From UHGV virus genome UHGV-0145637: DNA of 39,764 nt; one strand, 5' to 3'. The stretch is from a virus. Below are positions 1,227 through 39,764 of this stretch, piece by piece. A program made the position numbers and the translations under genes. Position 1 is the stretch's first letter; every line of letters starts with the position of its first letter. The notes beneath the pieces are model-generated. The model ran no database searches and was not told where the DNA came from. It saw only the letters and a program-made list of their open reading frames with translations.

Positions 1227-1227
1227 T

Positions 1228-4333: not shown

Positions 4334-4335
4334 TT

Positions 4336-4557: not shown

Positions 4558-4569
4558 ATGAGGTGTTAT

Positions 4570-4824: not shown

Positions 4825-4825
4825 G

Positions 4826-5376: not shown

Positions 5377-5380
5377 TTCC

Positions 5381-5674
5381 ATGAGCAAAGTACGCGTTAT
5401 TTTTGAATTTAATCATGTTTCGCATGACGAAAAGTTGGCAGGCAATGACTGTGTTGAAGTGCATGAAAAGATTGGAGTGGATGTGAAAACAGAACGTGAT
5501 ACGGATAACAGGCCGACGTCACTCTGTGACGTTTATGCAAGTATTCTCCAGTATCACAGTCCTGCAATTATTCAGTTTCTCTCAGCGGAATTTCAGGCAT
5601 CTGCACAGTCTTTTGGAGCGGATGCCATCATTAAACGCCACCGCGTGCATAAAGCATCAGGCACACTGCAATAA
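5381..5674 (+). CDS. Hypothetical early protein, paralogue 2
   Basis: Start taken at the internal MSKVRVIFEF, matching the N-terminus of the preceding paralogue. Confidence 0.45.
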   Translation: MSKVRVIFEFNHVSHDEKLAGNDCVEVHEKIGVDVKTERDTDNRPTSLCDVYASILQYHSPAIIQFLSAEFQASAQSFGADAIIKRHRVHKASGTLQ

Positions 5675-5685
5675 GGAAAAACAAA

Positions 5686-6216
5686 ATGGCTAAACGCGTT
5701 ACAAAATTAAAGGCCGCAGCCGAGGCGGCACCGCAGACCCGGGAAGAAGTCAGCCGTGATATCCGCACCCTGGGAGATATTCAGCGAGAGGCGCTGCGCC
5801 TGGAAACGGCGATGAATGACGAAGTGGCAGAAATCACCGCCCGTTATACGCCGCAGATTGAAAATCTTAAAAAGCAAATCAAAGTGCTTTTTAAAGGGAT
5901 TCAGGACTGGTGCAAAACCAACCGTGATGAGCTGACGAACGGCGGCAAAACCAAAACAGCCAATCTGACCACCGGAACGGTGTCATGGCGGCTGGGAACG
6001 CCATCATGCAGCGTCAGCCGTGATGTGGAAGGTGTGATTGAAATGCTGCGCCGTATGGGGCTTGAGCGTTTCATCCGCACGAAAGAGGAAGTGAACAAGG
6101 AAGCCGTCCTGGCGGAGCCGGATGCTGTGAAAGGCATTGCCGGTATCAAGGTGAATAAAGGCGCTGAAAGTTTTTATGTCGAGCCTTTTGAACAGGACGC
6201 CGGACTGAATAAATAA
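5686..6216 (+). CDS. gam: Gam-like host-nuclease inhibitor (DNA end-binding)
   Basis: 176 aa; conserved stretches RDELTNGGKTKTANLTTGTVSWR and LERFIRTKEEVNKEA match Mu Gam as recalled. Confidence 0.85.
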   Translation: MAKRVTKLKAAAEAAPQTREEVSRDIRTLGDIQREALRLETAMNDEVAEITARYTPQIENLKKQIKVLFKGIQDWCKTNRDELTNGGKTKTANLTTGTVSWRLGTPSCSVSRDVEGVIEMLRRMGLERFIRTKEEVNKEAVLAEPDAVKGIAGIKVNKGAESFYVEPFEQDAGLNK

Positions 6217-6361
6217 CACCACATTAATCAATTAAATATCACTTCATTTTAATTATGGCGCTCGCGTCAGGGGACTGCTTGCGCCTGAAAACAGAAAATA
6301 AGGGTTAAGAAATATGAAATACGTTTATATCGTCATTAATAATGTGGTGGGGAAATAAATC

Positions 6362-6895
6362 ATGATTGATGCAAAAGTGCTTGAAGGGGTTAAAAACTGG
6401 CTGTGTATTTATGGCCGCCTGACCTGCGGTGTACTGGCTGAAAAAATGAATATGCCGCCATCCTCCATGGTTTATTTTCTGCGTGATGCGGTTGATGCAG
6501 GCGTGCTGACGGAATGTAACGGTTTTTATGATATTCCGCGCCCCCGCCCGGTGCAGCCGGTTCGTCGCAAATGCAGCCAGGAATCTGCGGCTGATGATGT
6601 TCAGTGGTGCGGCTTCAGAAAATCCCTGCCATGGATTGAGGGGCATGATATTCCGTCGATGGCGTGGGAATTTGCTCAGGGCGTTCTGACCTGTGAAACC
6701 GTTTATGTGGTGGCTGAAGTTGATGAGCAGGCCATGAAAGAAGGCGTGCCCCAGTTTGTGATGGCGTATATCGACATACGCCTGGGCGTCATTATCTGCG
6801 GTTTAAGCGGCTGGAATATCACTGAACATGTTCTGCGCTACCTGATTGTTGACCGGACAGCAGCGCCTGCCGGGATATCTGCGGAGGTGGCGTAA
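6362..6895 (+). CDS. Hypothetical protein
   Basis: 177-aa ORF, co-directional; no motif recognised. Confidence 0.4.
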   Translation: MIDAKVLEGVKNWLCIYGRLTCGVLAEKMNMPPSSMVYFLRDAVDAGVLTECNGFYDIPRPRPVQPVRRKCSQESAADDVQWCGFRKSLPWIEGHDIPSMAWEFAQGVLTCETVYVVAEVDEQAMKEGVPQFVMAYIDIRLGVIICGLSGWNITEHVLRYLIVDRTAAPAGISAEVA

Positions 6896-7410
6896 TGTTC
6901 TTTAAAACATCAAACCCTTCCGCGCTGGCTGCGTGGCAAAAATACCAGCAGGACTGCCAGAAAGTTAAGGATGAGGCAAAACGCCTTGAGGCCGTGCTGA
7001 ATGTTGCGTGCCGGTCGGTATTTGTATCCGGTATCAGTGGATTTTACTTTAAGGGACTGCGTTTTACGGAGGACAAATATCCTTTTCATCGCGACTTATG
7101 GCGAAAACCGACTGCGTCGAATGGCTGGAGCTGCACACCGCGCACATCACGTATCCCTAAAACCCTGCGTGTTGCCTCTGATGAACTGAACAGTCTGTGG
7201 CGTGAATATTCGCCCGTCACGTATGCCAGAACCGATGCGCTGTTGTTCTGGTTGGGTATTGATTTCTCGGCAATCCTGTTTGGCCCTGTGAAGTGGTTCT
7301 GCGTTGACGATGTGATTTACCTTCAGTGCGGCGTAAAACCCGCAAAACAGAAAATGACCGAAATACTGTCTGATGAGTTTTATGCTGCTGAAAAGCGAGT
7401 CAGGGGGTGA
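6895..7410 (+). CDS. Hypothetical protein
   Basis: 171-aa ORF, start overlaps upstream stop. Confidence 0.4.
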   Translation: MFFKTSNPSALAAWQKYQQDCQKVKDEAKRLEAVLNVACRSVFVSGISGFYFKGLRFTEDKYPFHRDLWRKPTASNGWSCTPRTSRIPKTLRVASDELNSLWREYSPVTYARTDALLFWLGIDFSAILFGPVKWFCVDDVIYLQCGVKPAKQKMTEILSDEFYAAEKRVRG

Positions 7411-7413
7411 TGC

Positions 7414-7965
7414 ATGATGAAATTACAACCCATGGGACTAAAAGGTCGCGCCCCCGCTCATGTCCGTCCGTGGACACCTGAAGAAGATGCGCTGCTGATT
7501 GCGCTTTATTCATCCACCCCGGTTAAGGATATTGCTGCCAGAATAAAAAGAACTGTCTGGGCTGTATATAACCGGACTGGTGTATTGCGCAGTTCATACC
7601 CGGAGTTACTGAAATATAAACACCCAAGATTTACACCTGATGAAGATAAGTTTATTCGAAAAAATGCCAGAACAATGACCTGCCAGCAAATGGGAGAATA
7701 TCTCGGACGTAATAAAGATTCTGTCAGATGTCGGGCAGGAATGATTGGTGCTGGATTAACAAAGTGCGGAGAGTTACGCCCCGGCACGCACATATCTGAT
7801 GATGATGTACGTCTTATACGTGCGCTGCGTGATTCCGATTACCCACGCCGTCTGTCATTCCGGGAAATTGGCGAAAAGTTTGGAATATCTGAACATTCTG
7901 CTCACGCAGTTTATTACCGTCGCCGGACTGCCGAGGACGCTGTATTACGGGAGTTAACGCCATGA
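7414..7965 (+). CDS. Putative DNA-binding protein with two Myb/SANT-like repeats and a C-terminal HTH-like segment
   Basis: Repeats WTPEEDALLIALY...IAARIKRT and FTPDEDKFIRKNAR...LGRNKDSVRCR fit the Myb/SANT pattern. Confidence 0.45.
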   Translation: MMKLQPMGLKGRAPAHVRPWTPEEDALLIALYSSTPVKDIAARIKRTVWAVYNRTGVLRSSYPELLKYKHPRFTPDEDKFIRKNARTMTCQQMGEYLGRNKDSVRCRAGMIGAGLTKCGELRPGTHISDDDVRLIRALRDSDYPRRLSFREIGEKFGISEHSAHAVYYRRRTAEDAVLRELTP

Positions 7966-8291
7966 TAACGACCTTATTTGTTGAATCAGATGAACCTCTT
8001 GTGTGTGCCGCCGGAATGCCGCTCTGTGGCGGAACGCTGACCGGTGTTTATTTCGGGGATTTACGCGGTTATCCCTGGCATTCACTGAATGATGCTTTCC
8101 CACCTGATATGGAGGCTGCCGTGCTGATTGTTCAGTATGGTCACCGTCAGGAGCTGCGCATCGGCCATATGGGGTATGAAGGCTTTTTTGTTGATGAAGA
8201 AACCGGAGCCTGCCTTGAAGATGAAGACGGACAGGTGACGCACTGGTGTCATATTTCGGCTTTACCGGAATTACGGGAGGTGAATGCGTGA
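7962..8291 (+). CDS. Hypothetical protein
   Basis: 109-aa ORF, start overlaps upstream stop. Confidence 0.4.
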   Translation: MITTLFVESDEPLVCAAGMPLCGGTLTGVYFGDLRGYPWHSLNDAFPPDMEAAVLIVQYGHRQELRIGHMGYEGFFVDEETGACLEDEDGQVTHWCHISALPELREVNA

Positions 8292-8638
8292 GAAGTTATA
8301 TTGATAATGAAAAGCTGGAGACAATAAGCGACTGTCTTAGCTTGCTGGCAAAAATCAAAGAAACTATTGAAGAGATTAAATTTCAGCTTGAATACGCACC
8401 ATGTGGCGATGATGCATGGCGTAATGCTGCCAGAAAAGCACTGGCTGTCTTTCAGAAACAACGCCGGGCTGTTGAATACCGCCTTGCTGTATTGCGCCAG
8501 GAGGAAAAGGAAAGAAATATAAGACGTCATGAACGCGTTAATGATTTCCTTGTTCGTGAATTAAAAGAGCGCGTGCCGGAGTCGGTGTTTTTTGAATGTG
8601 AGGCTATAGCCCGTAGCAAAGCACTGGAAACAGATTAA
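8288..8638 (+). CDS. Hypothetical protein (GTG start)
   Basis: GGAGGTG RBS then GTG overlapping the upstream stop (GTGA); AT-rich relative to the backbone. Confidence 0.4.
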   Translation: MRSYIDNEKLETISDCLSLLAKIKETIEEIKFQLEYAPCGDDAWRNAARKALAVFQKQRRAVEYRLAVLRQEEKERNIRRHERVNDFLVRELKERVPESVFFECEAIARSKALETD

Positions 8639-18638: not shown

Positions 18639-19763
18639 ATGAAGACGAAAAACACGCCCAAACTTGCTTATGCCATTCTGAATGCCATCAGCCTGTCCGC
18701 AGACGGGGACGGTGACTGGTGTCAGATCATGCCAGCCGGTCGGGTAAAGGCCCGTGACGGTCGCCCGGAAAAACCGGCGGAAGGCTGGCTGATTAACCAT
18801 GCGGCCGTTGAGCGCATGGTATCCCGGGTTGTGGCGCTCAATCAGCCGGTAAAAATTGACTACAACCACCAGACCCTGATTAAGGGGCATCCGGCACCGG
18901 CTGCCGGTTTTGTCATGGCCTCACCGGAAAACTTCCGCTTCAGTGAAGAGCGGGGTTTTGAAGTGCGTCCGGACTGGAACCCTCCGGCCATTGAACACCT
19001 GCGCAATAACGAATTTCCCTGGTTTTCCCCGGTGATTGGTTATGACGAAATCACCGGTGAACCTGTTGAGCTTCGGATGCTGGCTATTACCGGTGACCCC
19101 GGTCTGACTGGCATGAATCCTGTCGCCGCACTGTCGGCGGATGACCTTTATAACGCCTTAAACCCTCCTTTAAAGGACACCTCCATGAATGAGCAATTAC
19201 GCCAGTTGCTGACGGCGCTCGGTCTGACCGTGGCCGACGGTGACGAATTTACACCGGAACTGGGCACGGCGGCGCTGTCTGCCCTTACCGGGATCAAAAC
19301 CCGTGCGGATGCGCACGACACCCTGAAAACGCAGGTTGCCAGCCTGTCGGCAGAGCTGGAAACCGCAAAAGGCACACCAACTGGCGGCACTATTGATCTG
19401 ACGAAATACGTGCCCGTTGAGACGTATAACGCCCTGCGTACCGAATATGTCGCGTTGTCGGCACAACACGGCAGCACCACGCTGGAGCAGTTGCTGGATA
19501 AGGCCGAGTCCGAAGGACGCATTTTCAAAAGCGAACGCGGATACATGGAAGGACTCGGACAACAGATTGGTGTTGCGGCACTTTCTGCACAGCTTGACGC
19601 CCGCCAGCCGGTTGCGGCTCTGACCACTCTTCAGACCGACACCGTAACCGTGCCGGATAAAAAGACCGCCACCGCTGCGCTGTCGGCTGAAGATATCGCC
19701 GCCGCCCATCTGCTGGGTAAAACCGAAGCCGAGTTCCTGAAAATGAAAGAGGAAATGCAATAA
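18639..19763 (+). CDS. Head protease/scaffold protein (Mu I-like)
   Basis: 374 aa directly upstream of the major head gene; Ala-rich C-terminal half typical of scaffold region. Confidence 0.7.
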   Translation: MKTKNTPKLAYAILNAISLSADGDGDWCQIMPAGRVKARDGRPEKPAEGWLINHAAVERMVSRVVALNQPVKIDYNHQTLIKGHPAPAAGFVMASPENFRFSEERGFEVRPDWNPPAIEHLRNNEFPWFSPVIGYDEITGEPVELRMLAITGDPGLTGMNPVAALSADDLYNALNPPLKDTSMNEQLRQLLTALGLTVADGDEFTPELGTAALSALTGIKTRADAHDTLKTQVASLSAELETAKGTPTGGTIDLTKYVPVETYNALRTEYVALSAQHGSTTLEQLLDKAESEGRIFKSERGYMEGLGQQIGVAALSAQLDARQPVAALTTLQTDTVTVPDKKTATAALSAEDIAAAHLLGKTEAEFLKMKEEMQ

Positions 19764-20710
19764 TGCCTACCCCGATCACACCGGCGATGATCACCGCCCT
19801 GATGACGGGCTACCGTTCTGATTTTCAGGCCGGGATGTCCATGGCTCCGTCTCAGTACCAGAAAATTGCGATGACCGTACCGTCCACGTCGAAATCCAAC
19901 ACCTACGGCTGGCTGGGGCAGTTCCCGCAGTTCCGTGAGTGGATCGGCTCCCGCGTCATCGAGAAGATGAAAGCCTATGGCTACGCCATCGTGAACAAAA
20001 CCTTTGAAGGCACCGTTGCCATTAGCCGCGATGACTTTGAAGACGACAATCTTGGCATCTACTCCCCGTTGTTCCAGGAGATGGGGCGCGCTGCGGCGGC
20101 ACAACCGGATGAACTGGTCTTTGCTGCACTGCGTGATGGTCTGAATGCGGCCTGCTATGACGGCCAGAACTTCTTTGATACCGAACACCCTGTTTACCCC
20201 AAAGTGGATGGCTCCGGTGATGCACAGATGGTCAGCAATATGTTTGTGGCAAAAACCGGCTCTGTCGGTGCACAGGCGGATTACAGCGGCCCGGCCTGGT
20301 ATCTGCTTGACTGCTCCCGCGCGGTAAAACCGCTGATTTATCAGGATCGCCGCAAGGCCGAACTGGTTGCCCAGACAAAAGTCGATGAAGGCCGTGCGTT
20401 TACTGATAACGAGTTTGTGTTCGGTGCTTCCGCCCGTCGCAATGTGGGCTACGGCTTCTGGCAGATGGCCTACATGATGCAGTCACCGCTGACGCTGGAT
20501 GCGCTGTGGCACGGCTGGTCAGCCATGCGTGACTTTAAGGCTGACGGTGGCCGCAAACTCGGCATCAAACCCACCCATATTGTTGTCCCCACCTCGCTGG
20601 AAAAACAGGCGGTGCAGCTGCTGGAGCGCGAGCTGTTCGCGGACGGTAACACCACCGTCTCTAACGAGATGAAGGGCAAGCTGGAGCTGGTTGTCGCGGA
20701 TTATCTGTAA
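19763..20710 (+). CDS. Major head (capsid) subunit (Mu T-like)
   Basis: 315 aa, position after I-like gene. Confidence 0.75.
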   Translation: MPTPITPAMITALMTGYRSDFQAGMSMAPSQYQKIAMTVPSTSKSNTYGWLGQFPQFREWIGSRVIEKMKAYGYAIVNKTFEGTVAISRDDFEDDNLGIYSPLFQEMGRAAAAQPDELVFAALRDGLNAACYDGQNFFDTEHPVYPKVDGSGDAQMVSNMFVAKTGSVGAQADYSGPAWYLLDCSRAVKPLIYQDRRKAELVAQTKVDEGRAFTDNEFVFGASARRNVGYGFWQMAYMMQSPLTLDALWHGWSAMRDFKADGGRKLGIKPTHIVVPTSLEKQAVQLLERELFADGNTTVSNEMKGKLELVVADYL

Positions 20711-20753
20711 ACGGTGAGCCGGGCTTACGGCCCGGCCCCTGCGGAGGGCAAAT

Positions 20754-21107
20754 ATGAATGAACATCACACTGTGGCAGCAACAGATGATTCAGGCCTTCA
20801 GGTCAGTGGTGACAGTCCTGTCACGGTACTGGCAGAAGTGCGTTGCAGTCGTGCGCAGTTTCGTCGTGCGGGGTTCCTGTTCATGCGGGGACGCCAGCAG
20901 GTTGACGTCACCCCGGAGCAGCTTGCCCGACTGGAAGCGGAGCCATGCCTCACTGTACGAATACTACAGACGCCTGGTGATGATGCGGGAGCCGTGGCGG
21001 GTGTGGTTCATGCAGAGACCGGTGCAGATTTAGCCGAAGCCGGACAGGATGCTCCCCGGAAAAAGACCGGCAATAACGCCAGACAGGCGAAAAAGGCTCG
21101 CGCATGA
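20754..21107 (+). CDS. Hypothetical head-region protein
   Basis: GGAGGG RBS; stop overlaps next start (ATGA). Confidence 0.45.
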   Translation: MNEHHTVAATDDSGLQVSGDSPVTVLAEVRCSRAQFRRAGFLFMRGRQQVDVTPEQLARLEAEPCLTVRILQTPGDDAGAVAGVVHAETGADLAEAGQDAPRKKTGNNARQAKKARA

Positions 21108-21523
21108 ATTACGCCACCGAAACCGATATGCGGGCACGTTACCGCGAGGATTTGCTCAGGCCATTACTGGCCGTGCCCCGTTCGGATGAGCCGGACACAC
21201 GCAAGCTGAACCGGGCACTGACGGACGCGTCTGCCCTTATCGACAGTTACCTGTCTGCCCGTTACACGCTGCCGCTGGCGGTGGTTCCGGCGGTCCTTGT
21301 TCAGCATTGCTGCACGATTGCCTTTTATTACCTGTGCGATCAGCGGGCATCCGATCAGGCGCGTGACCGTTACCGTGAGGCGCTGGCCTGGCTGAAAGAT
21401 GTCATGAACGGTAACGTGCCGGTCGGCGTGGATACAGACGGTGCGGCCCCTGAATCCGGGGATTTACCGCAGGTGCAGTCTGATGCGGCGGTGTTCGGGC
21501 GCAACCAGAAGGGCTTTATATGA
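21104..21523 (+). CDS. Head-tail joining protein (Mu gp36-like)
   Basis: 139 aa, position between capsid and sheath genes. Confidence 0.55.
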   Translation: MNYATETDMRARYREDLLRPLLAVPRSDEPDTRKLNRALTDASALIDSYLSARYTLPLAVVPAVLVQHCCTIAFYYLCDQRASDQARDRYREALAWLKDVMNGNVPVGVDTDGAAPESGDLPQVQSDAAVFGRNQKGFI

Positions 21524-22083
21524 TTACGGAAACCGAGCAAGCGTACATCGCCCGTATCCGTGAGTATTTCGGGAATGAACTGGTGTCTGTTGACACACAT
21601 CCCGGCGACTGGAGCGACAGCGTACTGCGTACCATGCTGATTAACGCCCCGGCTATCTATGTTGCCTGGCTGGGTGCCGGTGAAGGGCGTACCCGTGGGC
21701 GTCTGGTCAGTCACTGGGTGTTCTACGTCATCGGCGACATGCTCAATGGCCGTGAGGTCAGCCGTCCCGGGCTTTATCAGATTGTGGCCCGCCTGATTAC
21801 CTTGCTGGACGGCTTCAGAGCAGAAAAAACCTCACCGCTTTACTTTGAAAAGGCGGTCAACGGTTACACCGAAACGCAGGCAGGCAGCGGTGCCGTGATG
21901 TACGCCCTGTATTTCTCATGCGAGGAAATGATCGACCCGCTGACGGATATCAGCTCGCTGGATGATTTCCTGCGCCATTACGAAACCTTTACCGAACCGG
22001 AAGGCACGCCGGAGTTTAAGGCACACATCCGTCTGCCTGGTGCAACTGCCGCCGGTGAAAACGCCGGACCGTCAGAGGAATAA
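21520..22083 (+). CDS. Head-tail joining / tail completion protein (Mu gp37-like)
   Basis: 187 aa, position, translational coupling. Confidence 0.55.
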   Translation: MITETEQAYIARIREYFGNELVSVDTHPGDWSDSVLRTMLINAPAIYVAWLGAGEGRTRGRLVSHWVFYVIGDMLNGREVSRPGLYQIVARLITLLDGFRAEKTSPLYFEKAVNGYTETQAGSGAVMYALYFSCEEMIDPLTDISSLDDFLRHYETFTEPEGTPEFKAHIRLPGATAAGENAGPSEE

Positions 22084-22086
22084 CAG

Positions 22087-22365
22087 ATGACAACCATTTT
22101 TATTAAACCTGCGCCGGGATGCCTGATTCGCGATCCCGACACGATGACTCCGCTCTCACAGGACGGTGAAGAGAAACCCTTCACTCCGTTCTGGTGCCGC
22201 CGTCTTAATGATGGTGACGTCATTGTGGTGGATAAAACGGAGGAGCCTGCCCCGGCTGCCACAACAGGTAATACCGGCGCGGCGGCAAAACCAGCGGGAG
22301 CGGCAGCAGAAAAAACTGCGGCGGTGGCTGAAAAAACCGCAGCATCAGATAAGGGGACGTCCTGA
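22087..22365 (+). CDS. Small tail-region protein (Mu gp38-like)
   Basis: 92 aa, Ala/Pro-rich C-terminus, just upstream of sheath. Confidence 0.45.
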   Translation: MTTIFIKPAPGCLIRDPDTMTPLSQDGEEKPFTPFWCRRLNDGDVIVVDKTEEPAPAATTGNTGAAAKPAGAAAEKTAAVAEKTAASDKGTS

Positions 22366-23867
22366 TGATTAACTTTGATTATATCGGCGATAACAATCGC
22401 ATTCCGCTGGTACAGATTGAAATCAATAATTCAATGGCCGTGACCGGCACTCCACCACAGCGTCAGGCGGTACTGTTGTTTGGTCAGGCTGCAATGAAAG
22501 ACACCACCATTCAGGGGCGCGGTCAGCTTGATGTACCAGTACGTATTACCCGAGCTTCACAAGCAAGAGAACTCTGGGGGCGAGGTTCCATGATTGCACT
22601 GATGGTAGAGGAATTTATCGCCATTAACCCTGACACAGAGTTATATGCCATTGCACAGGGGGCTGGAACAGGTCAGTCCAGGGCATGCGTGATGAATATC
22701 ATTGGAACAGCATTGGCAGACGGGGTGTTAAGTGTTTACATCGGCGGTCGCCGTTACCTCCTGCCCGTCAGTAAGGGGAAAAAAGGTAAAGAGCTTGTGG
22801 AAGAGCTGGCTAAGGTCATTAACGCTGACACTGATGCGCCATTCACTGCTATCGCAGCTGAAGTCAGTGGTGATAATGCTGAAGGACTTAAAGGCAGCAT
22901 GGGGGTTAACGCCCGCTTTATCGGTGAATGCTCAGCTCATGATTTACGGGTGAACTATTATGACGGTGAAACTACACCGGCCGGTCTTACGCTGGAGCTC
23001 GTCGCGCCAACACAGAAGGCAACAAACCCCGATATCACCCGTAGCGTCTCAGGGATGGGGAATCGTCAGTACAACTACATCGTCATGCCCTATAAGGATG
23101 CGGCAAATCTCAAAATTCTGGCGGATGAACTGCTGAAACGCTGGGGACCGGTAAAAATGTCGGACGGTATGGTCTGGATGGCGCATACCGGCACCTTCGG
23201 TACGGCAACCAGTTTTGGTGAATCCCGTAATGACTTCCTGTTTACCTGCACTTCTATTCCTAAAGCACCAGAGCCGGATTATGTCTGGGCTGCCTCCATT
23301 TGTGCGGTCTGTGCGCCCTCCCTGTCAACGGATCCGGCCCGACCATTACAGACACTGGCGCTGCCTGCCCGTATGGCACCTGAAGCACCGGATCGTCTGA
23401 CGCGGGAAGAGCGAAACAGCCTGCTTTATACCGGCATGTCCACGGTGACCGTTGCGGCCGCTGATGTGGTGCAGATTGAACGTCAGGTGACGATGTACCG
23501 TCAGAATGCATACGGCGAAAGCGATCCCAGCTATCTGGATGTAGAAACCATCTACACCCTGTCATATCTGCGTTATTCCCTGCGCACCTTTATCACGCAG
23601 CGTTTCCCGCGCCACAAACTGGCCGATAACGGTACTCCCGTCCGGCCCGGTCAGAATATCGTGACGCCGGAGATTATGACGCTCCAGCTGATTGCACTGG
23701 GGGAAGAATGGGTGGAACTCGGGCTGGTCGAAAATCTGGACACCTTTAAAAAGAATCTGCTCGTGGAGCGCAACACAAAAGACCGTAACCGTCTGGATGT
23801 GATGTGTACACCGGATCTGGTTAACCAGTTCCGCTTCATGGCCGCGCAGATCCGTTTCATTTTGTGA
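22365..23867 (+). CDS. Tail sheath protein (Mu L-like)
   Basis: 500 aa followed by a tube-sized gene, then chaperone and tape measure. Confidence 0.8.
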   Translation: MINFDYIGDNNRIPLVQIEINNSMAVTGTPPQRQAVLLFGQAAMKDTTIQGRGQLDVPVRITRASQARELWGRGSMIALMVEEFIAINPDTELYAIAQGAGTGQSRACVMNIIGTALADGVLSVYIGGRRYLLPVSKGKKGKELVEELAKVINADTDAPFTAIAAEVSGDNAEGLKGSMGVNARFIGECSAHDLRVNYYDGETTPAGLTLELVAPTQKATNPDITRSVSGMGNRQYNYIVMPYKDAANLKILADELLKRWGPVKMSDGMVWMAHTGTFGTATSFGESRNDFLFTCTSIPKAPEPDYVWAASICAVCAPSLSTDPARPLQTLALPARMAPEAPDRLTREERNSLLYTGMSTVTVAAADVVQIERQVTMYRQNAYGESDPSYLDVETIYTLSYLRYSLRTFITQRFPRHKLADNGTPVRPGQNIVTPEIMTLQLIALGEEWVELGLVENLDTFKKNLLVERNTKDRNRLDVMCTPDLVNQFRFMAAQIRFIL

Positions 23868-32040: not shown

Positions 32041-32921
32041 TGTTTCATGTTGATAATAATTCCGGCGTGGCGAATATGCCTGCGCTGGCACCGGCGCAGA
32101 GTAATACCACCACCTGGTTTACCGAAGGTGACGGACAAAAAGGTATCAGCTGGATTGGTCAGGACTGGCTGAATATTCTCCAGGCCGAACTGCTGAATAT
32201 TCTGGCTGAAGCCAGTATTCAGCCGGATAAGGCGCAGTTAAACCAGCTTACGCTGTCCATTAAAGCCATTATCGCTGCGAATGCCTTTTCCCGGAAAAAT
32301 AACCTGAAAGAAATTGCTGATGCCGGTGCGGAGGCCCAGCGTCTGGCCCGTGGTTATCTTGGTCTGGGGACGCTTGCCACAAAAAACAGTCTTGGTCCCG
32401 CTGACGTTAATGCCCTGGCGAAGGATCAGAATCTCGCCGACCTGGAGAATAAGGGAACCGCCCGTAATAATCTGGATGTTTACAGCAAAAGCGAAGGTGA
32501 TAACCGTTACCTGCGCAGGGAGCAGAACGGCGCAGACATTCCGGATAAAGGGGCTTTTATCGATAACGTCGGTTTACGGGAAACGGTAAACAGGGCGGCG
32601 AATGCCCTGCCATCGGACGGCACCGCCGTTGCCGCGAACAGGCTGGCAAATGCCCACACAATTAATGGTGTTCCCTTTGACGGGACGCAGGATATCACTA
32701 TCTCATCAGGAACAGTAACCGCCATAAGACTGGGGTCGGTGACCGCACATATGCCCGGAACATGGGAAAGCTGGGATCTGAATCTGGGGGGCGGCAATGT
32801 TCTTACCGGAATTAAAGTACAGGATGTCGGTAAGAATACGGCAGATAACGTCGGCGGCGTGTATTACCGGCCGTTGCAGTATCTGTTAAATGGAGCATGG
32901 GTGACGGCTGCAAGTATATAA
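32040..32921 (+). CDS. Tail fibre protein (Mu S-like), C-terminus inside the invertible segment
   Basis: N-terminus [20 protein letters not shown]...WFTEG resembles Mu/P1 S as recalled; the crossover site lies inside the gene. Confidence 0.8.
32557..32700. repeat. Left inverted repeat of the invertible segment, with gix/hix-like 26-bp crossover site at 32557..32582
   Basis: Site TTATCGATAACG-TC-GGTTTACGGGAA; the following ~70 bp are near-identical to the reverse complement of 33815..33885, with weaker similarity to ~32700. Confidence 0.75.
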
Positions 32922-32930
32922 TGATATTCA

Positions 32931-32954
32931 GAAGGCCTTCCGGCCTTCTTTATT
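32931..32954 (+). terminator. Rho-independent terminator after the tail fibre gene
   Basis: 7-bp stem GAAGGCC / GGCCTTC, loop TTCC, followed by TTTATT; overlaps the stop of the convergent tfa gene. Confidence 0.6.
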
Positions 32955-33474
32955 ACTGTGGCTGCTCAGGCCATTTAATGGCGTTAAATTCAGCTTCTGT
33001 TTTAATGGCGGGTAGTTCCATTTTCTTCACCTGACTGATGTATGCCATCCATTGGGTAAGTGCTGCTCTGTCTTCATCGCTGATGGTGCCCAGTTGTAGC
33101 TCCGTTCTCCAGTCATTAATTTTTTCATATGCCTGATTAAGATATGACTGGCGCATTGCTTCCAGTTTTCTTGCGTAGTTAACCGGAATACGGGAGATTA
33201 TGCCATTATCAAACTTCCAGTTTCCTGAAATATCCGTGCCTTCAGGGAGTTCATCGACCTCAACCACAGAAAACCCCGCAGGATACAGCGCCGAGGCGTC
33301 CTGTGATATTGAGCAGATAACGCCGCTGTCAGGTGTTATGCAAAGTTTATATTTTTTGGTGAATAATGGCAGGGATTCGTAGAAATCCTTACCATCTTCA
33401 CTCTGGAAATACTGAACATTATTACCATATGGCATATTTTCAGGATAATAACGGGTTATATTTTTTAGTTCCAT
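32953..33474 (-). CDS. Tail fibre assembly chaperone (Tfa / U-like), inside the invertible segment
   Basis: 173 aa on the minus strand with AGGAGG RBS, directly downstream of the alternative fibre C-terminus; C-terminal ...AIKWPEQPQ resembles Tfa endings. Confidence 0.7.
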   Translation of the reverse strand: MELKNITRYYPENMPYGNNVQYFQSEDGKDFYESLPLFTKKYKLCITPDSGVICSISQDASALYPAGFSVVEVDELPEGTDISGNWKFDNGIISRIPVNYARKLEAMRQSYLNQAYEKINDWRTELQLGTISDEDRAALTQWMAYISQVKKMELPAIKTEAEFNAIKWPEQPQ

Positions 33475-33525: not shown

Positions 33526-33885
33526 TTATAACTGAGATACCGTAATCCATGTACCTCCGACTAATTTTTGCAGGGGTCTGAATGCTATAAAATCGTTTGA
33601 AGCATCAACTTTACTGTCAATCTGCAGGCCTGCCATAACATTACCGTACGCAGAGTAATATGCCCCACCGTACATTACCTGCCTGTTCTCTGCTCCCAGC
33701 CTGATATCCTGGATATATCGGGAATCCGCATCCTGCTGTGTTATACCAGAAGTGATGTTTATGTCCTGCGTCCCGTCAAAGGGAACCCCATTAATATTTC
33801 TTGGGGTGGCGAGTCTATTCGCGGCAACGGCGGTGCCGTCCGATGGCAGAGCATTCGCCGCCCTGTTTACCGTTTCCCGTAAACC
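33526..33885 (-). other. Alternative tail-fibre C-terminal cassette (S'v), start-codon-less
   Basis: Minus-strand frame is open for 119 codons from the crossover site ([17 protein letters not shown]... to ...GGTWITVSQL stop), in register with the fibre frame. Confidence 0.7.
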
Positions 33886-33899
33886 GAGGTTTTCAGGAA
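33760..33899. repeat. Right inverted repeat, with gix/hix-like crossover site at 33874..33899
   Basis: Reverse complement reads TTCCTGAAAACC-TC-GGTTTACGGGAA, sharing the half-site GGTTTACGGGAA and central TC with the left site. Confidence 0.75.
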
Positions 33900-33964: not shown

Positions 33965-34537
33965 ATGCTGATTGGGTATATCAGGGTGTCAACAAATGAC
34001 CAGAATACGGCGCTACAAAGAAATGCGCTGGAATGTGCAGGATGTGAGCTGTTTTTCGAAGACAGAATAAGCGGTAAGACAAGGGAGCGTCCCGGACTTA
34101 AACGCGCATTAAAGCGACTCCGGCCAGGGGATACCCTGCTGGTCTGGAAACTGGATCGCCTTGGACGCAGTATGCAGCACCTTGTCCTTTTAACAGAAGA
34201 ACTCCGGCAACGCGGCGTTAACTTCCGCAGCATTACGGACAATATTGATACATCCACTCCCATGGGACGTTTCTTTTTCCATATAATGGGCGCGCTGGCG
34301 GAAATGGAGCGGGAACTCATTATTGAACGTACACGCGCGGGTCTTGCTGCTGCCCGTGCTCAGGGGCGTCATGGCGGCAGACCTCAGAAACTGACAGAGA
34401 AAGAGCGGGAGCAAATCGCCCGTTTGCTGGCTAATGGCGAGTCCCGTAAACAAATCGCACTGATATTTGATATTGGCCTTTCCACCCTTTATCGTTATTT
34501 TCCTGCCTCACCAGCTCCGTCACCAAAAGTACCGTGA
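33965..34537 (+). CDS. gin: Serine recombinase DNA invertase (Gin/Hin/Cin/Pin family)
   Basis: MLIGYIRVSTNDQNTALQRNAL... with catalytic-serine motif and C-terminal HTH; near-colinear with Mu Gin as recalled. Confidence 0.9.
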   Translation: MLIGYIRVSTNDQNTALQRNALECAGCELFFEDRISGKTRERPGLKRALKRLRPGDTLLVWKLDRLGRSMQHLVLLTEELRQRGVNFRSITDNIDTSTPMGRFFFHIMGALAEMERELIIERTRAGLAAARAQGRHGGRPQKLTEKEREQIARLLANGESRKQIALIFDIGLSTLYRYFPASPAPSPKVP

Positions 34538-34622
34538 CGCTTTTTTGAATTTCCGCAAAACACATATTTTTCAGCGGTCGCTATTCTGACTCTGTTTAAT
34601 TCAGAAACAGGCAGAAAAGACG

Positions 34623-36677
34623 ATGTCAGACTCCAAGTGGAAAATGCTCTCCGCCATGCCCGGAGAGTTTTCAGTCAAGGTTGCCGGTGGCACGGTGGCA
34701 TTTATTGAAAGCCCTTTCCGCCCTTCGGGTAATAAAGGGGGGATCACCTTCGCAGACTGCGTGATCCGCTTCAGCACGAAAGAGCCATTATGGGTAATGC
34801 CGGTATCCGGTAATCCCAGTGCAGAAATCACCAGTTCAGGCGTGACTGGCATCATTCCAATCACATCTGACGTGGCCGGAACGCTCACGCCCTCCGACTG
34901 GAATGCACCGGATAACGCCGGGCCTTCCGGTAGCACGAATGGCAGCAGTTCAGAGCCGGAATATTACTTTGTTGTCATTCTCGCGGGTCAGTCAAATGGC
35001 ATGGCCTACGGCGAGGGGCTGCCGTTACCGGATTCGTTTGACCGCCCGGACCCACGCATTAAGCAACTGGCACGCCGCAGTACGGTAACGCCCAACGGTA
35101 CGTCGTGTACATACAACGACATCATTCCGGCAGACCACTGCCTGCATGATGTTCAGGATATGAGCGGGATAAACCACCCGAAAGCTGATCTGGCAAAAGG
35201 CCAGTACGGGACTGTCGGTCAGGGGTTGCATATTGCCAAAAAACTGCTTCCCTATATCCCACAGAATGCCGGGATACTTCTGGTGCCCTGTTGTCGTGGC
35301 GGGTCAGCATTCACCACTGGAGCCGACGGCTCATTCAGTGAGGCCAGCGGTGCTTCCGCTGATTCTTCACGCTGGGGGGCCGGTAAACCTCTGTATCAGG
35401 ACCTGGTAAGCCGCACCAAAGTCGCGCTGGCGAAAAACCCGAAAAACAAACTTCTGGCTGTGGTCTGGATGCAGGGAGAGGCAGACCTTGCCTCAGGAAG
35501 CCAGCAGCATAATAGTTTATTCACGGCCATGGTTCAGCAGTTCAGAACTGACCTGGCTCCGCTTGCTGCGCAGTGCGTGAGTGGAAATGCCACCACGGTG
35601 CCGTGGATTTGCGGTGATACCACGTATTACTGGAAAAACGCTGGCACCGATAAATATGAGGCAGTATACGGTGGCTACAAAGGCAAGGAAGCACAGAAAA
35701 TTTTCTTTGTACCGTTCCTGACGGATGAGAATGGACAGAGCACGCCAACGAATGCTCCGGCGGAAGACCCGGATATTGTGGCTGTCGGGTATTACGGTGC
35801 AGCATCCCGAACCCAGGGCAGTTTTGTTTCGACACAGCGTGACAGCCATTTCAGCTCATGGGCACGCAGGGGCGTCATTTCAGACCGTCTGGCCTCAGCT
35901 ATTATGCTCCATGCAGGGCGCACGGCTGAACTGATGCGCGGGCAGACCGTGACACCACCGGATGAGAAGCCGTCACCTGATACACCATCAAAACCGTCCA
36001 CGCCACCCGCAGACACCACGACGATGAGTACGCTATTTGCTTACCGGGCATCTGAGTCTGAAGGACGGTTGACACCACAGGGTTGGGCTGCCGGAGGTGG
36101 CAAGGCTCAAATCGTGGATGATGCCGGAGCCAGCGGGGGTAAGGCAATGAAACTGACCAAGGAAACAGGAAGAGCCCCCTGGTACCTTGAGCATGATGCT
36201 GGTAATGGTGCGGACCTGCTGGGTAAAGGTGGTCTTGTCAGTTGTCGTTTTAAACTCGATGGCGCGCTTACGGCTAATCAGTACGCACTGGCGCTGTACT
36301 GGCCGGTTTCTGCCCTGCCGCAAGGGGTTACTCTGGAAGGAAATGCCGGTCATAACCTGCTGGCATCGTTCTACGTACAGAGCGATGCCACAGACCTTAA
36401 CGTGATGTATCACAAAGGAAACACGGCGCAGAACACGAAGCTGGGGTCATTCGGCGCATTTAATAACGAATGGCATACGCTGGGCTTCCGTTTTGCCGGT
36501 AACAACAGTATTGAGGTGACACCGGTCATTGATGGTAAGGACGGGACACCATTCATGCTGTCGCAGTCTCCGGTCGGCACGTTTACGGCAGACAAGTTGC
36601 GCGTGACCGATATCACTAAAAATGCGACTTACCCGGTACTGATTGACAGTATCGTGGTGGAAGTGAATAACGCGTAA
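34623..36677 (+). CDS. SGNH-type (sialate-O-acetylesterase-like) esterase domain protein with Pro/Thr linker and C-terminal beta-rich domain
   Basis: Motifs VILAGQSNGMAYGEG and VVWMQGEAD; linker PPDEKPSPDTPSKPSTPPADTTT; about 210-aa C-terminal domain; no N-terminal signal peptide. Confidence 0.5.
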   Translation: MSDSKWKMLSAMPGEFSVKVAGGTVAFIESPFRPSGNKGGITFADCVIRFSTKEPLWVMPVSGNPSAEITSSGVTGIIPITSDVAGTLTPSDWNAPDNAGPSGSTNGSSSEPEYYFVVILAGQSNGMAYGEGLPLPDSFDRPDPRIKQLARRSTVTPNGTSCTYNDIIPADHCLHDVQDMSGINHPKADLAKGQYGTVGQGLHIAKKLLPYIPQNAGILLVPCCRGGSAFTTGADGSFSEASGASADSSRWGAGKPLYQDLVSRTKVALAKNPKNKLLAVVWMQGEADLASGSQQHNSLFTAMVQQFRTDLAPLAAQCVSGNATTVPWICGDTTYYWKNAGTDKYEAVYGGYKGKEAQKIFFVPFLTDENGQSTPTNAPAEDPDIVAVGYYGAASRTQGSFVSTQRDSHFSSWARRGVISDRLASAIMLHAGRTAELMRGQTVTPPDEKPSPDTPSKPSTPPADTTTMSTLFAYRASESEGRLTPQGWAAGGGKAQIVDDAGASGGKAMKLTKETGRAPWYLEHDAGNGADLLGKGGLVSCRFKLDGALTANQYALALYWPVSALPQGVTLEGNAGHNLLASFYVQSDATDLNVMYHKGNTAQNTKLGSFGAFNNEWHTLGFRFAGNNSIEVTPVIDGKDGTPFMLSQSPVGTFTADKLRVTDITKNATYPVLIDSIVVEVNNA

Positions 36678-36821
36678 GCAGGATAAAAAAATGCCGCCGG
36701 TAAGGGAAAACAAGAAACCGGCGGCAAAAAGATCGTTATATCCAAAGCAAAAAATGCAGTGCACCTTTTTACCTAACAGATATTACCGGTGTCAACACCA
36801 TGTCAATAATTGGGAGGGATA

Positions 36822-37004
36822 ATGACATTTTTACAGCTTATTTTATTGTATTTCTGCACGGCAGTATGTGCGTTATATCTGGTGAGTGGTGGTTATAAGG
36901 CCATCAGAAATTATGTTCGCCGCAAAATTGAGGACGCAGCAGCTGAAAAACTCAGTAAAACAGCGCAGGTAACTCCGCTCCCAAAAGACCCGACCCAGCC
37001 CTGA
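36822..37004 (+). CDS. Small membrane protein, 60 aa
   Basis: GGGAGGG RBS 5 nt before ATG; MTFLQLILLYFCTAVCALYLV hydrophobic helix then charged tail. Confidence 0.45.
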   Translation: MTFLQLILLYFCTAVCALYLVSGGYKAIRNYVRRKIEDAAAEKLSKTAQVTPLPKDPTQP

Positions 37005-37039
37005 TTGCAGGGCTTTATTCCCGCATAAGGAGGATATAC

Positions 37040-37294
37040 ATGCCAGAAATTAAAGGCACCGTCACTGAAGACCTGGTAAAACAGGCACTGTATTCCGGTG
37101 AAGTAAATAAGTTGCTGAAAGCGCAGGTCCGCAAGGATTTTGAGGCACAAATCGACACTTACGTTGATGAAGTGCTGGCAAAACTTATTGGGCCAGCAGT
37201 TGCGGCCAGTGATGCTGATAATGAGCCGAAAACCGACGCGCAGCCAGAGCAACCAGACCCGGCTCAGCCCGGAACTGACAGTACCATGATGTAA
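37040..37294 (+). CDS. Small acidic hypothetical protein, 84 aa
   Basis: Strong AAGGAGG RBS; acidic Pro-rich C-terminus; hairpin AAACCGG...CCGGTTT downstream. Confidence 0.5.
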   Translation: MPEIKGTVTEDLVKQALYSGEVNKLLKAQVRKDFEAQIDTYVDEVLAKLIGPAVAASDADNEPKTDAQPEQPDPAQPGTDSTMM

Positions 37295-37461
37295 CAATAC
37301 AAACCGGTGGTGTCCTCTGCCGGTTTGACACTAATGAAAACATCTTTGCCGCTATCCAGCCATATGTAATCGCTGGATAGTATTTCGTATTCAGAAATAT
37401 AGCTGCTTATGGAGCAGTCAATCCTGCTTCCCCATCCGGGCAGGCAAATGAACCGGTATCA

Positions 37462-37755
37462 TTAGTCCGATTCACGCTTTTGTAGAATCGTTCCCAGAAT
37501 GCTATACAGCTCATTAGCCTGTTGCTCCATCATTGAGACGGAGGCTATACGGTGCAAAGTGATTTCAGGAGGTGGCACACCTCCATCTTCTTGCTGTGGA
37601 GGAAAAACATAAGATTTAATAAAAAAGTTGAAGCATATGAACTCTCCCGCACTCGAACTGTATTTGCAGGCATCTGAATAATCGGAAAAATAATCATTAT
37701 AGATTTCCGCATTTTCAATCATTTTTCGATTTCTCGTCGTTACATGATTGTCCAT
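37462..37755 (-). CDS. Hypothetical protein, 97 aa, antisense to neighbours
   Basis: TAAGAGG RBS, AT-rich, divergent from com-mom across a 255-bp AT-rich region. Confidence 0.45.
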   Translation of the reverse strand: MDNHVTTRNRKMIENAEIYNDYFSDYSDACKYSSSAGEFICFNFFIKSYVFPPQQEDGGVPPPEITLHRIASVSMMEQQANELYSILGTILQKRESD

Positions 37756-37877
37756 AGCAGCCTCTTACGCTGGCAATTAACCAATTGACTTCTATAAATT
37801 AGTTGATTTGTTTGCTTTGCGGTATTCAAATGTACAATCATTCAGCACTTATGCGTTACAGCACCGTTTAAAATTAG

Positions 37878-37964
37878 TGATCAAACTCATAAATTTTCGC
37901 TAATGACATTTCGTGTTATTTGTTGTATCAATTAAATAAATCAAATCGATCGTTTTTGTCGATC
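37878..37964. promoter_or_regulatory. GATC cluster with inverted repeat upstream of com-mom
   Basis: GATC at 37878, 37948 and 37961; the last two lie in the palindrome AATCGATCG-TTTTTGT-CGATCGATT, about 50 bp before the com start. Confidence 0.5.
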
Positions 37965-38011
37965 GATTGAGTGATAAAGATATCAACAACAAAGCAGGAG
38001 GTTATGCGGCC

Positions 38012-38212
38012 ATGTATCGAAACATACGGTGCCGACATTGTAACAAGCTACTGGCACGAGCCAGCTTCAGTTATCTGGAAGTTAAATGTCCGCGCTGTAA
38101 AACCCTCAATCAAATCACATCTCAGAGCGCCACAGAGCACCCCACATACACAAGGAAATCCTGTCGTGGGGAACAGAAAGCAAGTTACATCCCGTATCAT
38201 CAGCACGCCTGA
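38012..38212 (+). CDS. com: Com zinc-finger translational activator of mom
   Basis: [10 protein letters not shown]...EVKCPRCK matches the Mu Com zinc finger as recalled (IRCKNCNKLL...IRCPRCK); GCAGGAGG RBS; start at the internal Met of the track ORF. Confidence 0.8.
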
Positions 38213-38903
38213 ACTTATTCACTATAACGACAATATCGTCGGTTATGGCTCCCGTGAGTTACGGGTTGAGACAATAAGTTGCTGGCTGGCCCGGCTGGTC
38301 GTCGTCAATAAACATTACAGCCATCGTTTCGTAAATAATTCCTACCTTCATCTGGGCATATTTTCAGAACGGGAGCTGGTTGGCGTAATGCAATGGGGTT
38401 ATGCCCTTAATCCAAACAATGGTGCACGCGTCGTAACTGGCACGCAGAACCGCGAATATATGGAGCTTAACCGGTTATGGCTGCATGACTGTATGCCGAG
38501 AAACTCCGAATCAAGGGCAATCAGTTACGCGCTCAAACTAATCAGACAACTTTATCCGCAGGTGCAGTGGGTTCAGTCGTTTGCAGATGAGCGTTGTGGC
38601 TGTCTTGGTGTCGTGTACCAGGCAAGCAATTTTGATTATGTAGGCAGTCATGAAACAACATTCTATGAACTTGATGGCGAGTGGTATCACGAGATTTGCA
38701 AGAATGCAATCAAACGAGGAGGACAGCGAGGTGAACATCTGCGGGCTAATATCGACAGAGCCAGTGTTCATAAATTCCGTCAGTTTCGTTACATCCGGTT
38801 TCTGGACAAGAGAGCCAGAAAACGCCTTAACACAAAGCTATTCAAAGTCCAGCCTTACCCAAAACCACAAACAGTTAAAACTGGTTTGAAAGAGAGTGAA
38901 TGA
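38166..38903 (+). CDS. mom: Mom-like DNA modification protein
   Basis: 246-aa frame beginning inside the 3' end of com (GTG at 38166 with AGGAAA upstream), as in Mu; assigned by position and size only. Confidence 0.55.
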
Positions 38904-38944
38904 ACGCTTAAAAACTCATTCTAAAACTCAAAAGAAAAGCGCCG

Positions 38945-39036
38945 ATTTAGTATCAAATAAGTTGCGTATCGGCGTTTTTCAGCGGTATCAAATGAAATGC
39001 AAATCGGTATCAAAAAAATCGCCGCGCTATAATACA
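38945..39036. repeat. Right-end region with three GTATCAAA repeats (attR-like) and putative terminus ...TAATACA
   Basis: GTATCAAA at 38950, 38985 and 39007; reverse complement of the terminus begins TGTATTATAGCG. Confidence 0.5.
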
Positions 39037-39735
39037 TGCGCTTGCTTGCGCACTCCAGCGCCAGCTGTTTGATGTCGTAGTTCGGATCGCCTTTTTTATG
39101 GTTCAGACCATCGCGAATCGCAAACACCAGTTTCGGGAACACCGCAGTTTTACGGTTTTTACCGAGGCCTGCGATACGGTTACGCAGGATAGATTCCTGA
39201 ATCAGGCGCGACTCCCAGCTGGTGCCCAGACCAAAACCAAAGGTTACAAACGGCGTCTGACCGTTGGCGGTGTGCAGGGTGTTTACTTCGTACTCCAGCG
39301 ACTGGAAGGCATCGTAGCACTCTTTAATGGTACGAGAGTTAGCGTAGCCTTCGGCGTCCGGGATGTTCCACTCTTCTGCGGTCTTGCGATGTTTGTTGTA
39401 GCTGGCGGTAACAAACGGCGCCAGCACTTCATCGATACGGTTAATGGTGGTGCCGCCATAAATATGGCTGGCGACCTGAGCAATAATCTGCGCAGTTACC
39501 GCGGTTGCCGTAGAGATCGACTTCGGCGGTTCAATCTCGGCGTTCCCCATCTTAAAGCCCTGGGTCAGCATGCCTTTCAGGTCGATCAACATGCAGTTGA
39601 ACATCGGGAAGAACGGCGAGTAATCGAGATCGTGATAGTGAATATCGCCACGCTCATGTGCCTGCACCACGTCACGCGGCAGCAGGTGCTGACGTGCATA
39701 GTGTTTAGCCACGATCCCGGCCAGCAGGTCGCGCT
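39037..39735 (-). CDS. nrdD: Host anaerobic ribonucleoside-triphosphate reductase, 5'-partial and interrupted at the phage junction
   Basis: Minus-strand translation AKHYARQHLLPRDVVQAHERGDIHYHDLDYSPFFPMFNCMLIDLKG... resembles enterobacterial NrdD as recalled; the frame runs out of the contig and degenerates on entering phage DNA after ...ECASKRMY. Confidence 0.6.
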
Positions 39736-39764
39736 CTGTCTCTTATACACATCTGACGCTGCCG
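39736..39764. other. Nextera adapter read-through (library artefact)
   Basis: CTGTCTCTTATACACATCT (reverse complement of the Tn5 mosaic end) followed by GACGCTGCCG. Confidence 0.9.

Follow-up and report, generated by a model that had tools for sequence, protein, structure and literature searches.

NanS-p is a prophage-borne sialate O-acetylesterase of the Shiga toxin (Stx) prophages and other lambdoid prophages of enterohaemorrhagic Escherichia coli (EHEC). Characterised members are active on 9-O-acetylated N-acetylneuraminic acid (Neu5,9Ac2) and on the O-acetylated sialoglycans of mucin, and lysogens grow on Neu5,9Ac2. Until now the enzyme has been seen as accessory equipment of Stx and other lambdoid prophages, with which EHEC can feed on mucin sialic acid. 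Here we analysed the virus genome UHGV-0145637 (39,764 nucleotides, hereafter the window), which is overall a complete Mu-type prophage with transposase A and B, a Mu portal, gpF, gpI, the major head protein gpT and a sheath protein. Next to its gin gene lies an open reading frame (ORF) of 684 amino acids that, on its sequence, almost certainly encodes a NanS-p-family sialate 9-O-acetylesterase. The enzyme itself is already known as NanS-p; what is new is the Mu-type setting and the replacement of the N-terminal domain. Taken jointly, the family assignment with its chemistry and the N-terminal swap are very probable.

The closest described relatives are the lambdoid NanS-p proteins (L0105/z1466 of phage 933W; vb_24B_21, also called gp84, of phage phi24B; PDB 6YP6), whose SASA and DUF6645 domains are homologous to those of the window protein. 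The window protein is 62-66% identical to the Stx-phage alleles, among which are the characterised enzymes, and 85-91% identical over residues ~95-684 to the nearest relatives of the DUF1737 type, which lie in ordinary non-Stx lambdoid prophages. From these identities and the papers on the family, activity on Neu5,9Ac2 and mucin sialoglycans may be expected. Catalytic and sugar-site residues are the same, the same DUF1378 and DUF826 genes follow downstream, and a signal peptide is likewise missing. The window protein thus shares three sequence features with NanS-p (SASA domain, catalytic residues, DUF6645 lectin domain) and lacks two others. The first is the N-terminal DUF1737, in place of which the window protein has an unrelated β module and a longer linker. 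The second is the location in the lambdoid late region, downstream of Q/stx and upstream of holin S and the other lysis genes; the window gene lies between gin and the mom promoter (Pmom) of a Mu-type transposable myophage and is therefore not under Q antitermination.

Two further groups are related more loosely. E. coli NanS (YjhS, PDB 3PT5), the chromosomal 9-O-acetyl-N-acetylneuraminate esterase, aligns with the catalytic domain end to end and has the same GQSN serine and RxSH histidine, but it is a single domain of about 326 residues, encoded in the nanCMS sialic-acid operon; N-terminal module, linker and lectin domain are all missing from it. Peduoviridae, the P2-like phages (e.g. vB_EcoM-569R5), also carry a homologous esterase as an accessory gene of a temperate myophage; their copies keep DUF1737 and lie after the lysis genes. 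In the gp63.1 tailspike of phage G7C, influenza C HEF and coronavirus HE, all proven receptor-binding or receptor-destroying spikes, an SGNH-type O-acetylesterase and a lectin-type module are displayed on the virion, and HEF and HE also act on 9-O-acetyl sialic acid. The likeness to these three is at the level of the SGNH superfamily, and for the window protein a place on the virion is only putative. In the searchable literature, which did not cover three older relevant papers, we found neither a Mu-like phage with NanS-p nor the N-terminal module described; the papers on Sp18 and SfMu do not mention the esterase.

Domains and catalytic residues of the esterase

A first-pass annotation, made from the sequence without database searches, had recognised an SGNH esterase of the sialate-O-acetylesterase type by its GQSN (residues 122-125) and WMQGEAD (residues 282-288) motifs, and profile searches bore this out. 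Residues 110-428 match residues 16-331 of NanS in 3PT5 (E 1.8e-117), and Pfam SASA (PF03629) was found with an E-value of 1.5e-13 and 51.3 bits against a cut-off of 24.8. A chance ORF is ruled out by the match of the protein to PHROG 143 (E 1.7e-296) and by ratios of non-synonymous to synonymous substitution rates (dN/dS) of 0.02-0.13 across the folded domains.

In an alignment of 13 diverse homologues S124, N125, G226, N275, Q284, E286 and H409 are invariant. Within the catalytic domain QGE (284-286) is conserved, and the SGNH fold is indicated by the 3PT5 alignment together with the invariance of the candidate block residues S124, G226, N275 and H409. Of the catalytic Ser-His-Asp named in the first-pass annotation, Ser124 and His409 held and the block V aspartate did not: no aspartate is invariant, and Ala stands in place of D407 both in 933W and in the other Mu-type allele. 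The histidine block reads RDSH here and RSSH or RASH in NanS and NanS-p. Conservation of Ser and His without an invariant Asp, as in NanS, suggests catalysis by a Ser124-His409 dyad.

The Pro/Thr linker (about residues 437-468) and the C-terminal domain were equally well described; the latter measures 216 residues against an estimate of ~210. Residues 469-683 match 6YP6, a chain deposited as 'NanS-p' (E 7e-98), and Pfam DUF6645 (PF20350) covers the domain with an E-value of 7e-68. The 6YP6 domain has been described as a lectin-like jelly-roll and probable carbohydrate-binding module whose proposed sugar site contains four aromatic residues. These residues (Y510, Y515, Y540 and F611 of vb_24B_21) are conserved as Y554, Y559, Y584 and F654, in keeping with the enzyme-plus-binding-module layout first proposed, and the C-terminal domain is a putative carbohydrate-binding module here too. 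The linkers on either side of the catalytic domain (linkers 1 and 2) are the two most divergent segments between the Mu-type sub-lineages, with 32-35% identity.

The maximum 19-residue Kyte-Doolittle hydropathy of the whole protein is 1.03, and there is therefore no signal peptide or transmembrane segment, as had been noted. The missing signal peptide had also been used to argue for virion association, an argument that fails because cellular NanS, which aligns from residue ~5, has no leader either.

A constrained N-terminal module in place of DUF1737

The first ~55 residues of the lambdoid homologues are DUF1737, and alignment shows that the first ~110 residues of the window protein are wholly different. 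We considered whether the module is a diverged DUF1737 and rejected this: Pfam gave no match to DUF1737 (PF08410) in the window protein, and hhalign of the module against the DUF1737 N-terminus aligned only the shared EPEYYYV that opens the SASA domain. In addition, the AlphaFold2 (AF2) model is all-β, whereas DUF1737 has been described as a helix plus three strands (2026 preprint). The AF2 model from a six-sequence alignment is all-β over residues 1-80, with a predicted local distance difference test score (pLDDT) of 70-88, followed by a disordered linker to residue ~112; a single-sequence run on residues 1-133 gave a pLDDT of 39.

Searches of Pfam, PHROGs, NCBIfam and PADLOC gave no match to residues 1-80. 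Only module fragments and one 30%-identical relative from Salmonella came out of an exhaustive HMMER search of 1.84e9 representative proteins. Word-indexed homology searches gave only fragments with residues 1-113 and only the self-match with the Salmonella copy, and a scan of genome contigs with the module alignment gave no match. Similarly, phmmer with residues 1-110 against all ORFs of the window, including those of the fibre and baseplate, found only the module itself.

Within the window-type lineage, dN/dS of the module is 0.02-0.04 at dS 0.19-0.37, compared with 0.09-0.13 for the SASA domain and 0.12-0.13 for the lectin domain. It is on this result, and not on the tree pattern described below, that the constraint on the module rests: the module is a real, constrained domain. 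The same values bear on the idea of a decaying passenger, in which a lambdoid cassette was fused by accident and the first ~110 codons are former non-coding or unrelated sequence read in frame. Such an origin would fit the left homology breakpoint, which lies inside the ORF, the weak-looking ribosome-binding site and the failure to find a promoter. Against it, the module stays in frame across lineages in which it is 97-100%, about 61% and 30% identical, its folded model is moderately confident, the catalytic residues are intact and the gene is full length in most of ~233 genomes; with the selection analysis, which effectively refutes it, a decaying passenger is scarcely credible.

Distribution of the Mu-type allele

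We found 34 module loci in IMG/VR and 17 in metagenomes, all in only two E. coli/Shigella groups; the module is 97-100% identical to the window copy in one and about 61% identical in the other. Gene neighbourhoods were checked for the 34 IMG/VR loci, and the 17 metagenome loci were scored for module presence only. The neighbourhood is Mu-type at the IMG/VR loci, with two exceptions (L008 and L013) in the downstream flank, and the gene order is baseplate J, gp48, fibre, fibre-assembly gene, (gin), esterase, DUF1378, DUF826, com, mom.

Among 5,426 complete E. coli genomes, 28 carry the window-type module and 205 the other type, about 233 in total, with up to 3-4 copies per genome. The first-pass view that such a gene would be unusual in a Mu-type phage is not borne out by these counts. 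Truncated esterase copies are few (L011, L025, L033 and L049). The other-type group includes strains of O157:H7 and O111:H8, so that about 4% of complete E. coli genomes, Shiga toxin producers (STEC) of these two serotypes among them, hold an additional NanS-p in a Mu-type prophage. RefSeq names the protein only 'DUF6645 domain-containing protein' in the complete genomes examined, while homologues are named 'sialate O-acetylesterase' in some other NCBI records; counts of nanS-p genes per strain may therefore be too low.

A third module lineage was found in Salmonella enterica (GCA_037428405.1, positions 6792-8461, at a contig end; L006). Here gin is followed by two small orphan ORFs and then by a module, 30% identical, joined to a GQSN esterase of which the contig end leaves only the 5' part. 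This Mu-like prophage is distant, with a baseplate J about 30% identical. The module was thus found only in Mu-type phages, in two lineages of E. coli/Shigella and one of Salmonella.

A cassette exchanged with lambdoid prophages

In lambdoid prophages the gene order is Q, DUF1737-SASA-DUF6645, DUF1378, DUF826, P21-type holin, lysozyme and Rz, and in 933W stx2AB, L0105 and the lysis genes. DNA homology of 87% to the non-Stx lambdoid loci spans esterase codon 111 to the middle of the DUF1378 gene. Its left edge (34955) is the start of the catalytic domain, so that the recombination junction with the lambdoid alleles falls at the 3' end of linker 1, an in-frame domain boundary. DUF1378 occurs together with the esterase in the lambdoid loci and in all Mu-type loci that reach that far. 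The block of nanS-p, DUF1378 and DUF826 is therefore common to two unrelated phage types.

When the enzyme and lectin part was placed in a neighbour-joining tree, Mu-type alleles formed no single group but were interleaved with DUF1737-type alleles in at least six runs. The nearest relative of one Mu-type allele (P0011) is of the DUF1737 type, at 95.4% identity, with the nearest Mu type at 92.7%; the window allele shares 91% identity with a lambdoid allele and only ~70% with the other Mu-type lineage. This interleaving implies that the enzyme/lectin part keeps moving between prophage types, and on the sequence comparisons it is still exchanged with lambdoid alleles through homologous recombination. 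This exchange leaves out the first ~110 residues, which stay with the Mu backbone. We rejected the interleaved tree as proof that selection keeps the module in Mu-type phages, since gene conversion would be expected to give the pattern anyway.

Two loci depart from the Mu-type order downstream of the esterase. In L008 (IMGVR_UViG_2617270951_000022, 96-8236) a Mu-type gin and a module-bearing esterase are followed by DUF1378 and then directly by a lambdoid P21-type holin, Rz and terminase Nu1; L013, whose downstream flank is rearranged, is a second chimeric locus. Unless both are assembly chimeras, the esterase cassette appears to be a recombination bridge between Mu-like and lambdoid prophages. 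Homology shared in this way can join prophages of the two types and is a possible route to genome rearrangement.

Proposed role of the esterase and the question of the virion

Having no leader, the esterase would be made in the cytoplasm during lytic growth and leave the cell at lysis. Once released, it would remove O-acetyl groups from the sialic acids of host mucin, which may then be open to sialidases and to catabolism through the NanA pathway by surviving lysogens. The lectin-like domain, reached through the flexible Pro/Thr linker, is thought to hold the enzyme on sialoglycans. Should the module attach to the Mu-type particle in the way that DUF1737 attaches to that of phi24B, the virion might also bind mucus or move through it.

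The precedent comes from a 2026 preprint, in which NanS-p of phi24B (gp84) is among the most abundant virion proteins and serves as a capsid decoration protein. Its DUF1737 forms a hexamer in the centre of the capsid hexons, and its enzyme and lectin parts are cleaved off later. By analogy with phi24B, virion association in general is plausible for the window protein. The analogy is joined by a second consideration, namely that a highly constrained N-terminal domain has been kept here though cellular NanS needs none. The domain reported to fix the protein to the capsid is the very part that has been swapped for a constrained, lineage-specific one, which bears on the view of NanS-p proteins as virion-displayed mucus modules with interchangeable anchors. 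We tentatively regard the module as a possible virion anchor, and carriage of the esterase on the Mu-type particle as conceivable rather than probable. The fuller proposal, that the β module is a Mu-type-specific dock and that the Mu-like virions of E. coli, Shigella and Salmonella display the esterase and lectin, seems to us somewhat unlikely. If it were true, these phages would have a counterpart of the haemagglutinin-esterases of influenza C virus and coronaviruses, with virions that bind, are released from and cross O-acetylated gut mucus. In that case NanS-p would be built in modules of anchor, enzyme and lectin, each phage architecture having an anchor of its own and the enzyme/lectin cassette circulating among unrelated prophages resident in the same cell.

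Several observations weigh against a docked esterase or limit the main reading as a whole. DUF1737, the capsid anchor of phi24B, is exactly the part replaced, so the window protein lacks the hexamer that plugs the hexons. The 'SSP' processing motifs proposed for phi24B are also absent from it. P2-like myophages carry the DUF1737 type, and DUF1737 is therefore not bound to one particle architecture, which weakens the idea of an anchor swapped to fit. The all-β prediction comes from six sequences, and the five AF2 models differ widely, with mean pLDDT of 33-66. Retention of the module by Mu-type genes is partly a trivial outcome of gene conversion, because conversion acts on the homologous segment only. 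Gene-by-gene comparison with the other sub-lineage showed no co-divergence of the module with any single structural gene; the whole region from the fibre to DUF826 is one divergent mosaic block between the sub-lineages and masks any such co-divergence. For expression, a weak hairpin with a U-run lies between gin and the esterase gene, upstream of which we found no element like the C box of Mu (TTAT-N6-ATAA, as in Mu Pmom). Finally, the module has no detectable similarity to any structural protein. A search of the literature for proteomics or structures of Mu-type particles with the esterase gene found none.

The missing similarity to structural proteins also fits a lysogenic-conversion ('moron') enzyme that never enters the virion, gets out through lysis or leakage from lysogens, and does no more than let bacteria feed on O-acetylated sialic acids; the module would then be non-structural, with a part in oligomerisation, solubility or regulation. 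Until 2026 this view of NanS-p was the established one, built on growth of lysogens on Neu5,9Ac2 and on de-O-acetylation of mucin glycans. It also agrees with the position of the gene, which lies outside the tail/fibre and head operons and adjoins the accessory genes gin and mom. What speaks for particle association instead is that the direct lambdoid homologue is an abundant capsid protein (2026 preprint) and that a soluble enzyme has no obvious need of an N-terminal domain constrained beyond its catalytic domain, when cellular NanS functions without one. We give the purely nutritional role not far short of an even chance.

Some E. coli surface polysaccharides, among them the K1 capsule and the O104 antigen, contain O-acetylated sialic acid. 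The first-pass annotation had favoured a second receptor-binding or receptor-modifying virion protein acting on O-antigen or capsule; on the tail, it would deacetylate them to aid adsorption, much like the SGNH-esterase tailspikes of certain coliphages, and such polysaccharides, the esterase and lectin-like layout and the position of the gene just downstream of the fibre and invertase region would all suit it. A published review of NanS-p also leaves room for deacetylation of O-antigen. There is no sign here, however, that O-antigen or capsule is the substrate: the catalytic domain matches the sialate-specific NanS over nearly its whole length, and the family has been characterised on Neu5,9Ac2 and mucin sialoglycans. 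Nor does the protein look like part of a tail, as its N-terminus is unlike the tail, fibre, baseplate or any other protein of the window phage, no N-terminal adaptor is shared with a tail fibre or tailspike in the phmmer comparison, and the gene lies outside the fibre operon. The only virion-located homologue sits on the capsid and not on the tail, the enzyme part passes freely to and from lambdoid phages that have different receptors, and the prophage occurs in many serotypes, most of them not known to be sialylated. Together these findings make a receptor-modifying tail protein quite improbable, though it is conceivable in hosts that bear O-acetylated sialic acid on their surface.

Features of the locus and expression signals

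The features are collected in Table 1. A large gene had been noted between gin and com-mom, where phage Mu has none. Its position and the contrast with Mu stand, but the insert consists of four ORFs and not one: the esterase, DUF1378, DUF826 and an orphan ORF on the minus strand. From the gin stop to the com start the window measures 3,474 bp, compared with 94 bp in phage Mu, where the gap contains Pmom. The esterase ORF begins with ATG, and the same start is annotated by RefSeq in identical prophages.

Table 1 Annotated features around the esterase gene of the window, in order of position.
Feature	Coordinates	Strand	Evidence
gin-type serine invertase, left neighbour	33965..34537	+	Pfam Resolvase E 1.6e-51 and HTH_7; 74% identity to Mu Gin
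Weak hairpin and U6 overlapping the gin stop	34518..34546	+	-6.6 kcal/mol; z -1.7; not significant alone
NanS-p-family sialate O-acetylesterase, Mu-type variant, 684 aa (almost certain family)	34623..36677	+	
N-terminal module, aa 1-80, predicted all-β, Mu-type-specific, in place of DUF1737	34623..34862	+	
Linker 1, aa 81-111, predicted disordered, Ser/Gly/Pro-rich	34863..34955	+	pLDDT below 50
DNA block 87% identical to the lambdoid nanS-p and DUF1378 region	34955..36956	+	blastn against two lambdoid loci (L060, L061)
SGNH/SASA catalytic domain, NanS-like, aa 112-436	34956..35930	+	3PT5, Pfam SASA, invariant columns
Linker 2, Pro/Thr/Ser-rich, about aa 437-468	35931..36026	+	Sequence
C-terminal lectin-like jelly-roll domain DUF6645, aa 469-684 (216 aa), with stop codon	36027..36677	+	6YP6, Pfam
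Strong 10-bp GC-rich hairpin directly after the esterase stop	36692..36726	.	-20 kcal/mol; z -4.1 (+), -4.9 (-)
DUF1378 small protein	36822..37004	+	Pfam E 1.2e-31
DUF826 small protein	37040..37294	+	Pfam E 6.4e-16; synteny
Orphan ORF, outside the conserved cassette	37462..37722	-	Absent from several related loci; GC 36-43%
com and mom, right neighbours	38012..38212 and 38166..38903	+	Pfam Zn_ribbon_Com, Mom; RefSeq annotation

The DUF1378 protein has an N-terminal hydrophobic helix, with a 19-residue Kyte-Doolittle maximum of 2.27. Between DUF826 and com lies an AT-rich, variable slot (37300-37960; 36-43% GC) that houses the orphan ORF. This ORF is annotated with 86 residues in RefSeq and has 97 if counted to the first possible start; it gave no match in Pfam, PHROGs, NCBIfam or PADLOC.

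A terminator scanner predicted no terminator between gin and the esterase gene. At the same gin-stop position the other Mu sub-lineage has a hairpin of different sequence, and the hairpin of the window is possibly a leaky terminator between the two genes. The strong hairpin after the esterase stop is preceded by an A7 tract, which on the minus strand becomes a U7 tract after the hairpin; it resembles an antisense-transcription terminator or a 3' stabiliser.

The sole exact TTAT-N6-ATAA match in the window lies at 37015-37028, between DUF1378 and DUF826. It was rejected as a C-dependent late-promoter box, being only 12 bp before the DUF826 start and not significant (at least one match occurs in 29% of shuffles). 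The Pmom region of the window phage differs from that of Mu, and for this reason a C box cannot be defined for it. Three GATC sites are clustered at 37945-37968, just upstream of com. The cluster resembles the region of Mu Pmom controlled by Dam methylation and OxyR, although the rest of the promoter region differs.

Prophage ends, insertion sites and other mosaic features

Both ends of the window carry Illumina Nextera adapter sequence (1-54 and 39736-39764), leaving about 55-39735 as biological sequence. The left adapter combines a P7 fragment, index CTAGTACG and mosaic end AGATGTGTATAAGAGACAG; on the right the mosaic end lies on the minus strand. With the contig bounded by these untrimmed adapters, only about 12 nucleotides precede the putative left end of the phage. 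At about 39037 the Mu-type right end (…ATAATACA) meets an nrdD fragment (ORF 38921-39712, minus strand; region ~38990-39735), and the prophage therefore interrupts the gene for anaerobic ribonucleotide reductase. Identical or near-identical prophages lie in ydcF, flgL and xdhA in other strains. Varied insertion sites are to be expected of a phage that inserts by transposition, and together with the multiple copies per genome they are consistent with recent transposition.

Upstream of gin, inverted repeats of 86 nucleotides (32562-32647 and 33809-33894; 93% complementary) and a further pair (32661-32710 and 33746-33795) flank a G-like invertible segment that contains one tail-fibre-assembly gene only (32953-33474, minus strand). 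Both orientations of this segment occur among related loci (e.g. L016, L021, L023 and L036), and gin and the alternative fibre end have been lost in strains M3 and CI5 and in L012, L020 and L026-L028. Between the two E. coli Mu-type sub-lineages, as compared over window positions 18639-23867 with L062, most genes are 90-99% identical, and this background is broken by divergent mosaic patches in gpI (74%), a 117-residue protein after gpT (20754-21107; 81%), a 92-residue protein (63%) and the sheath (71%).

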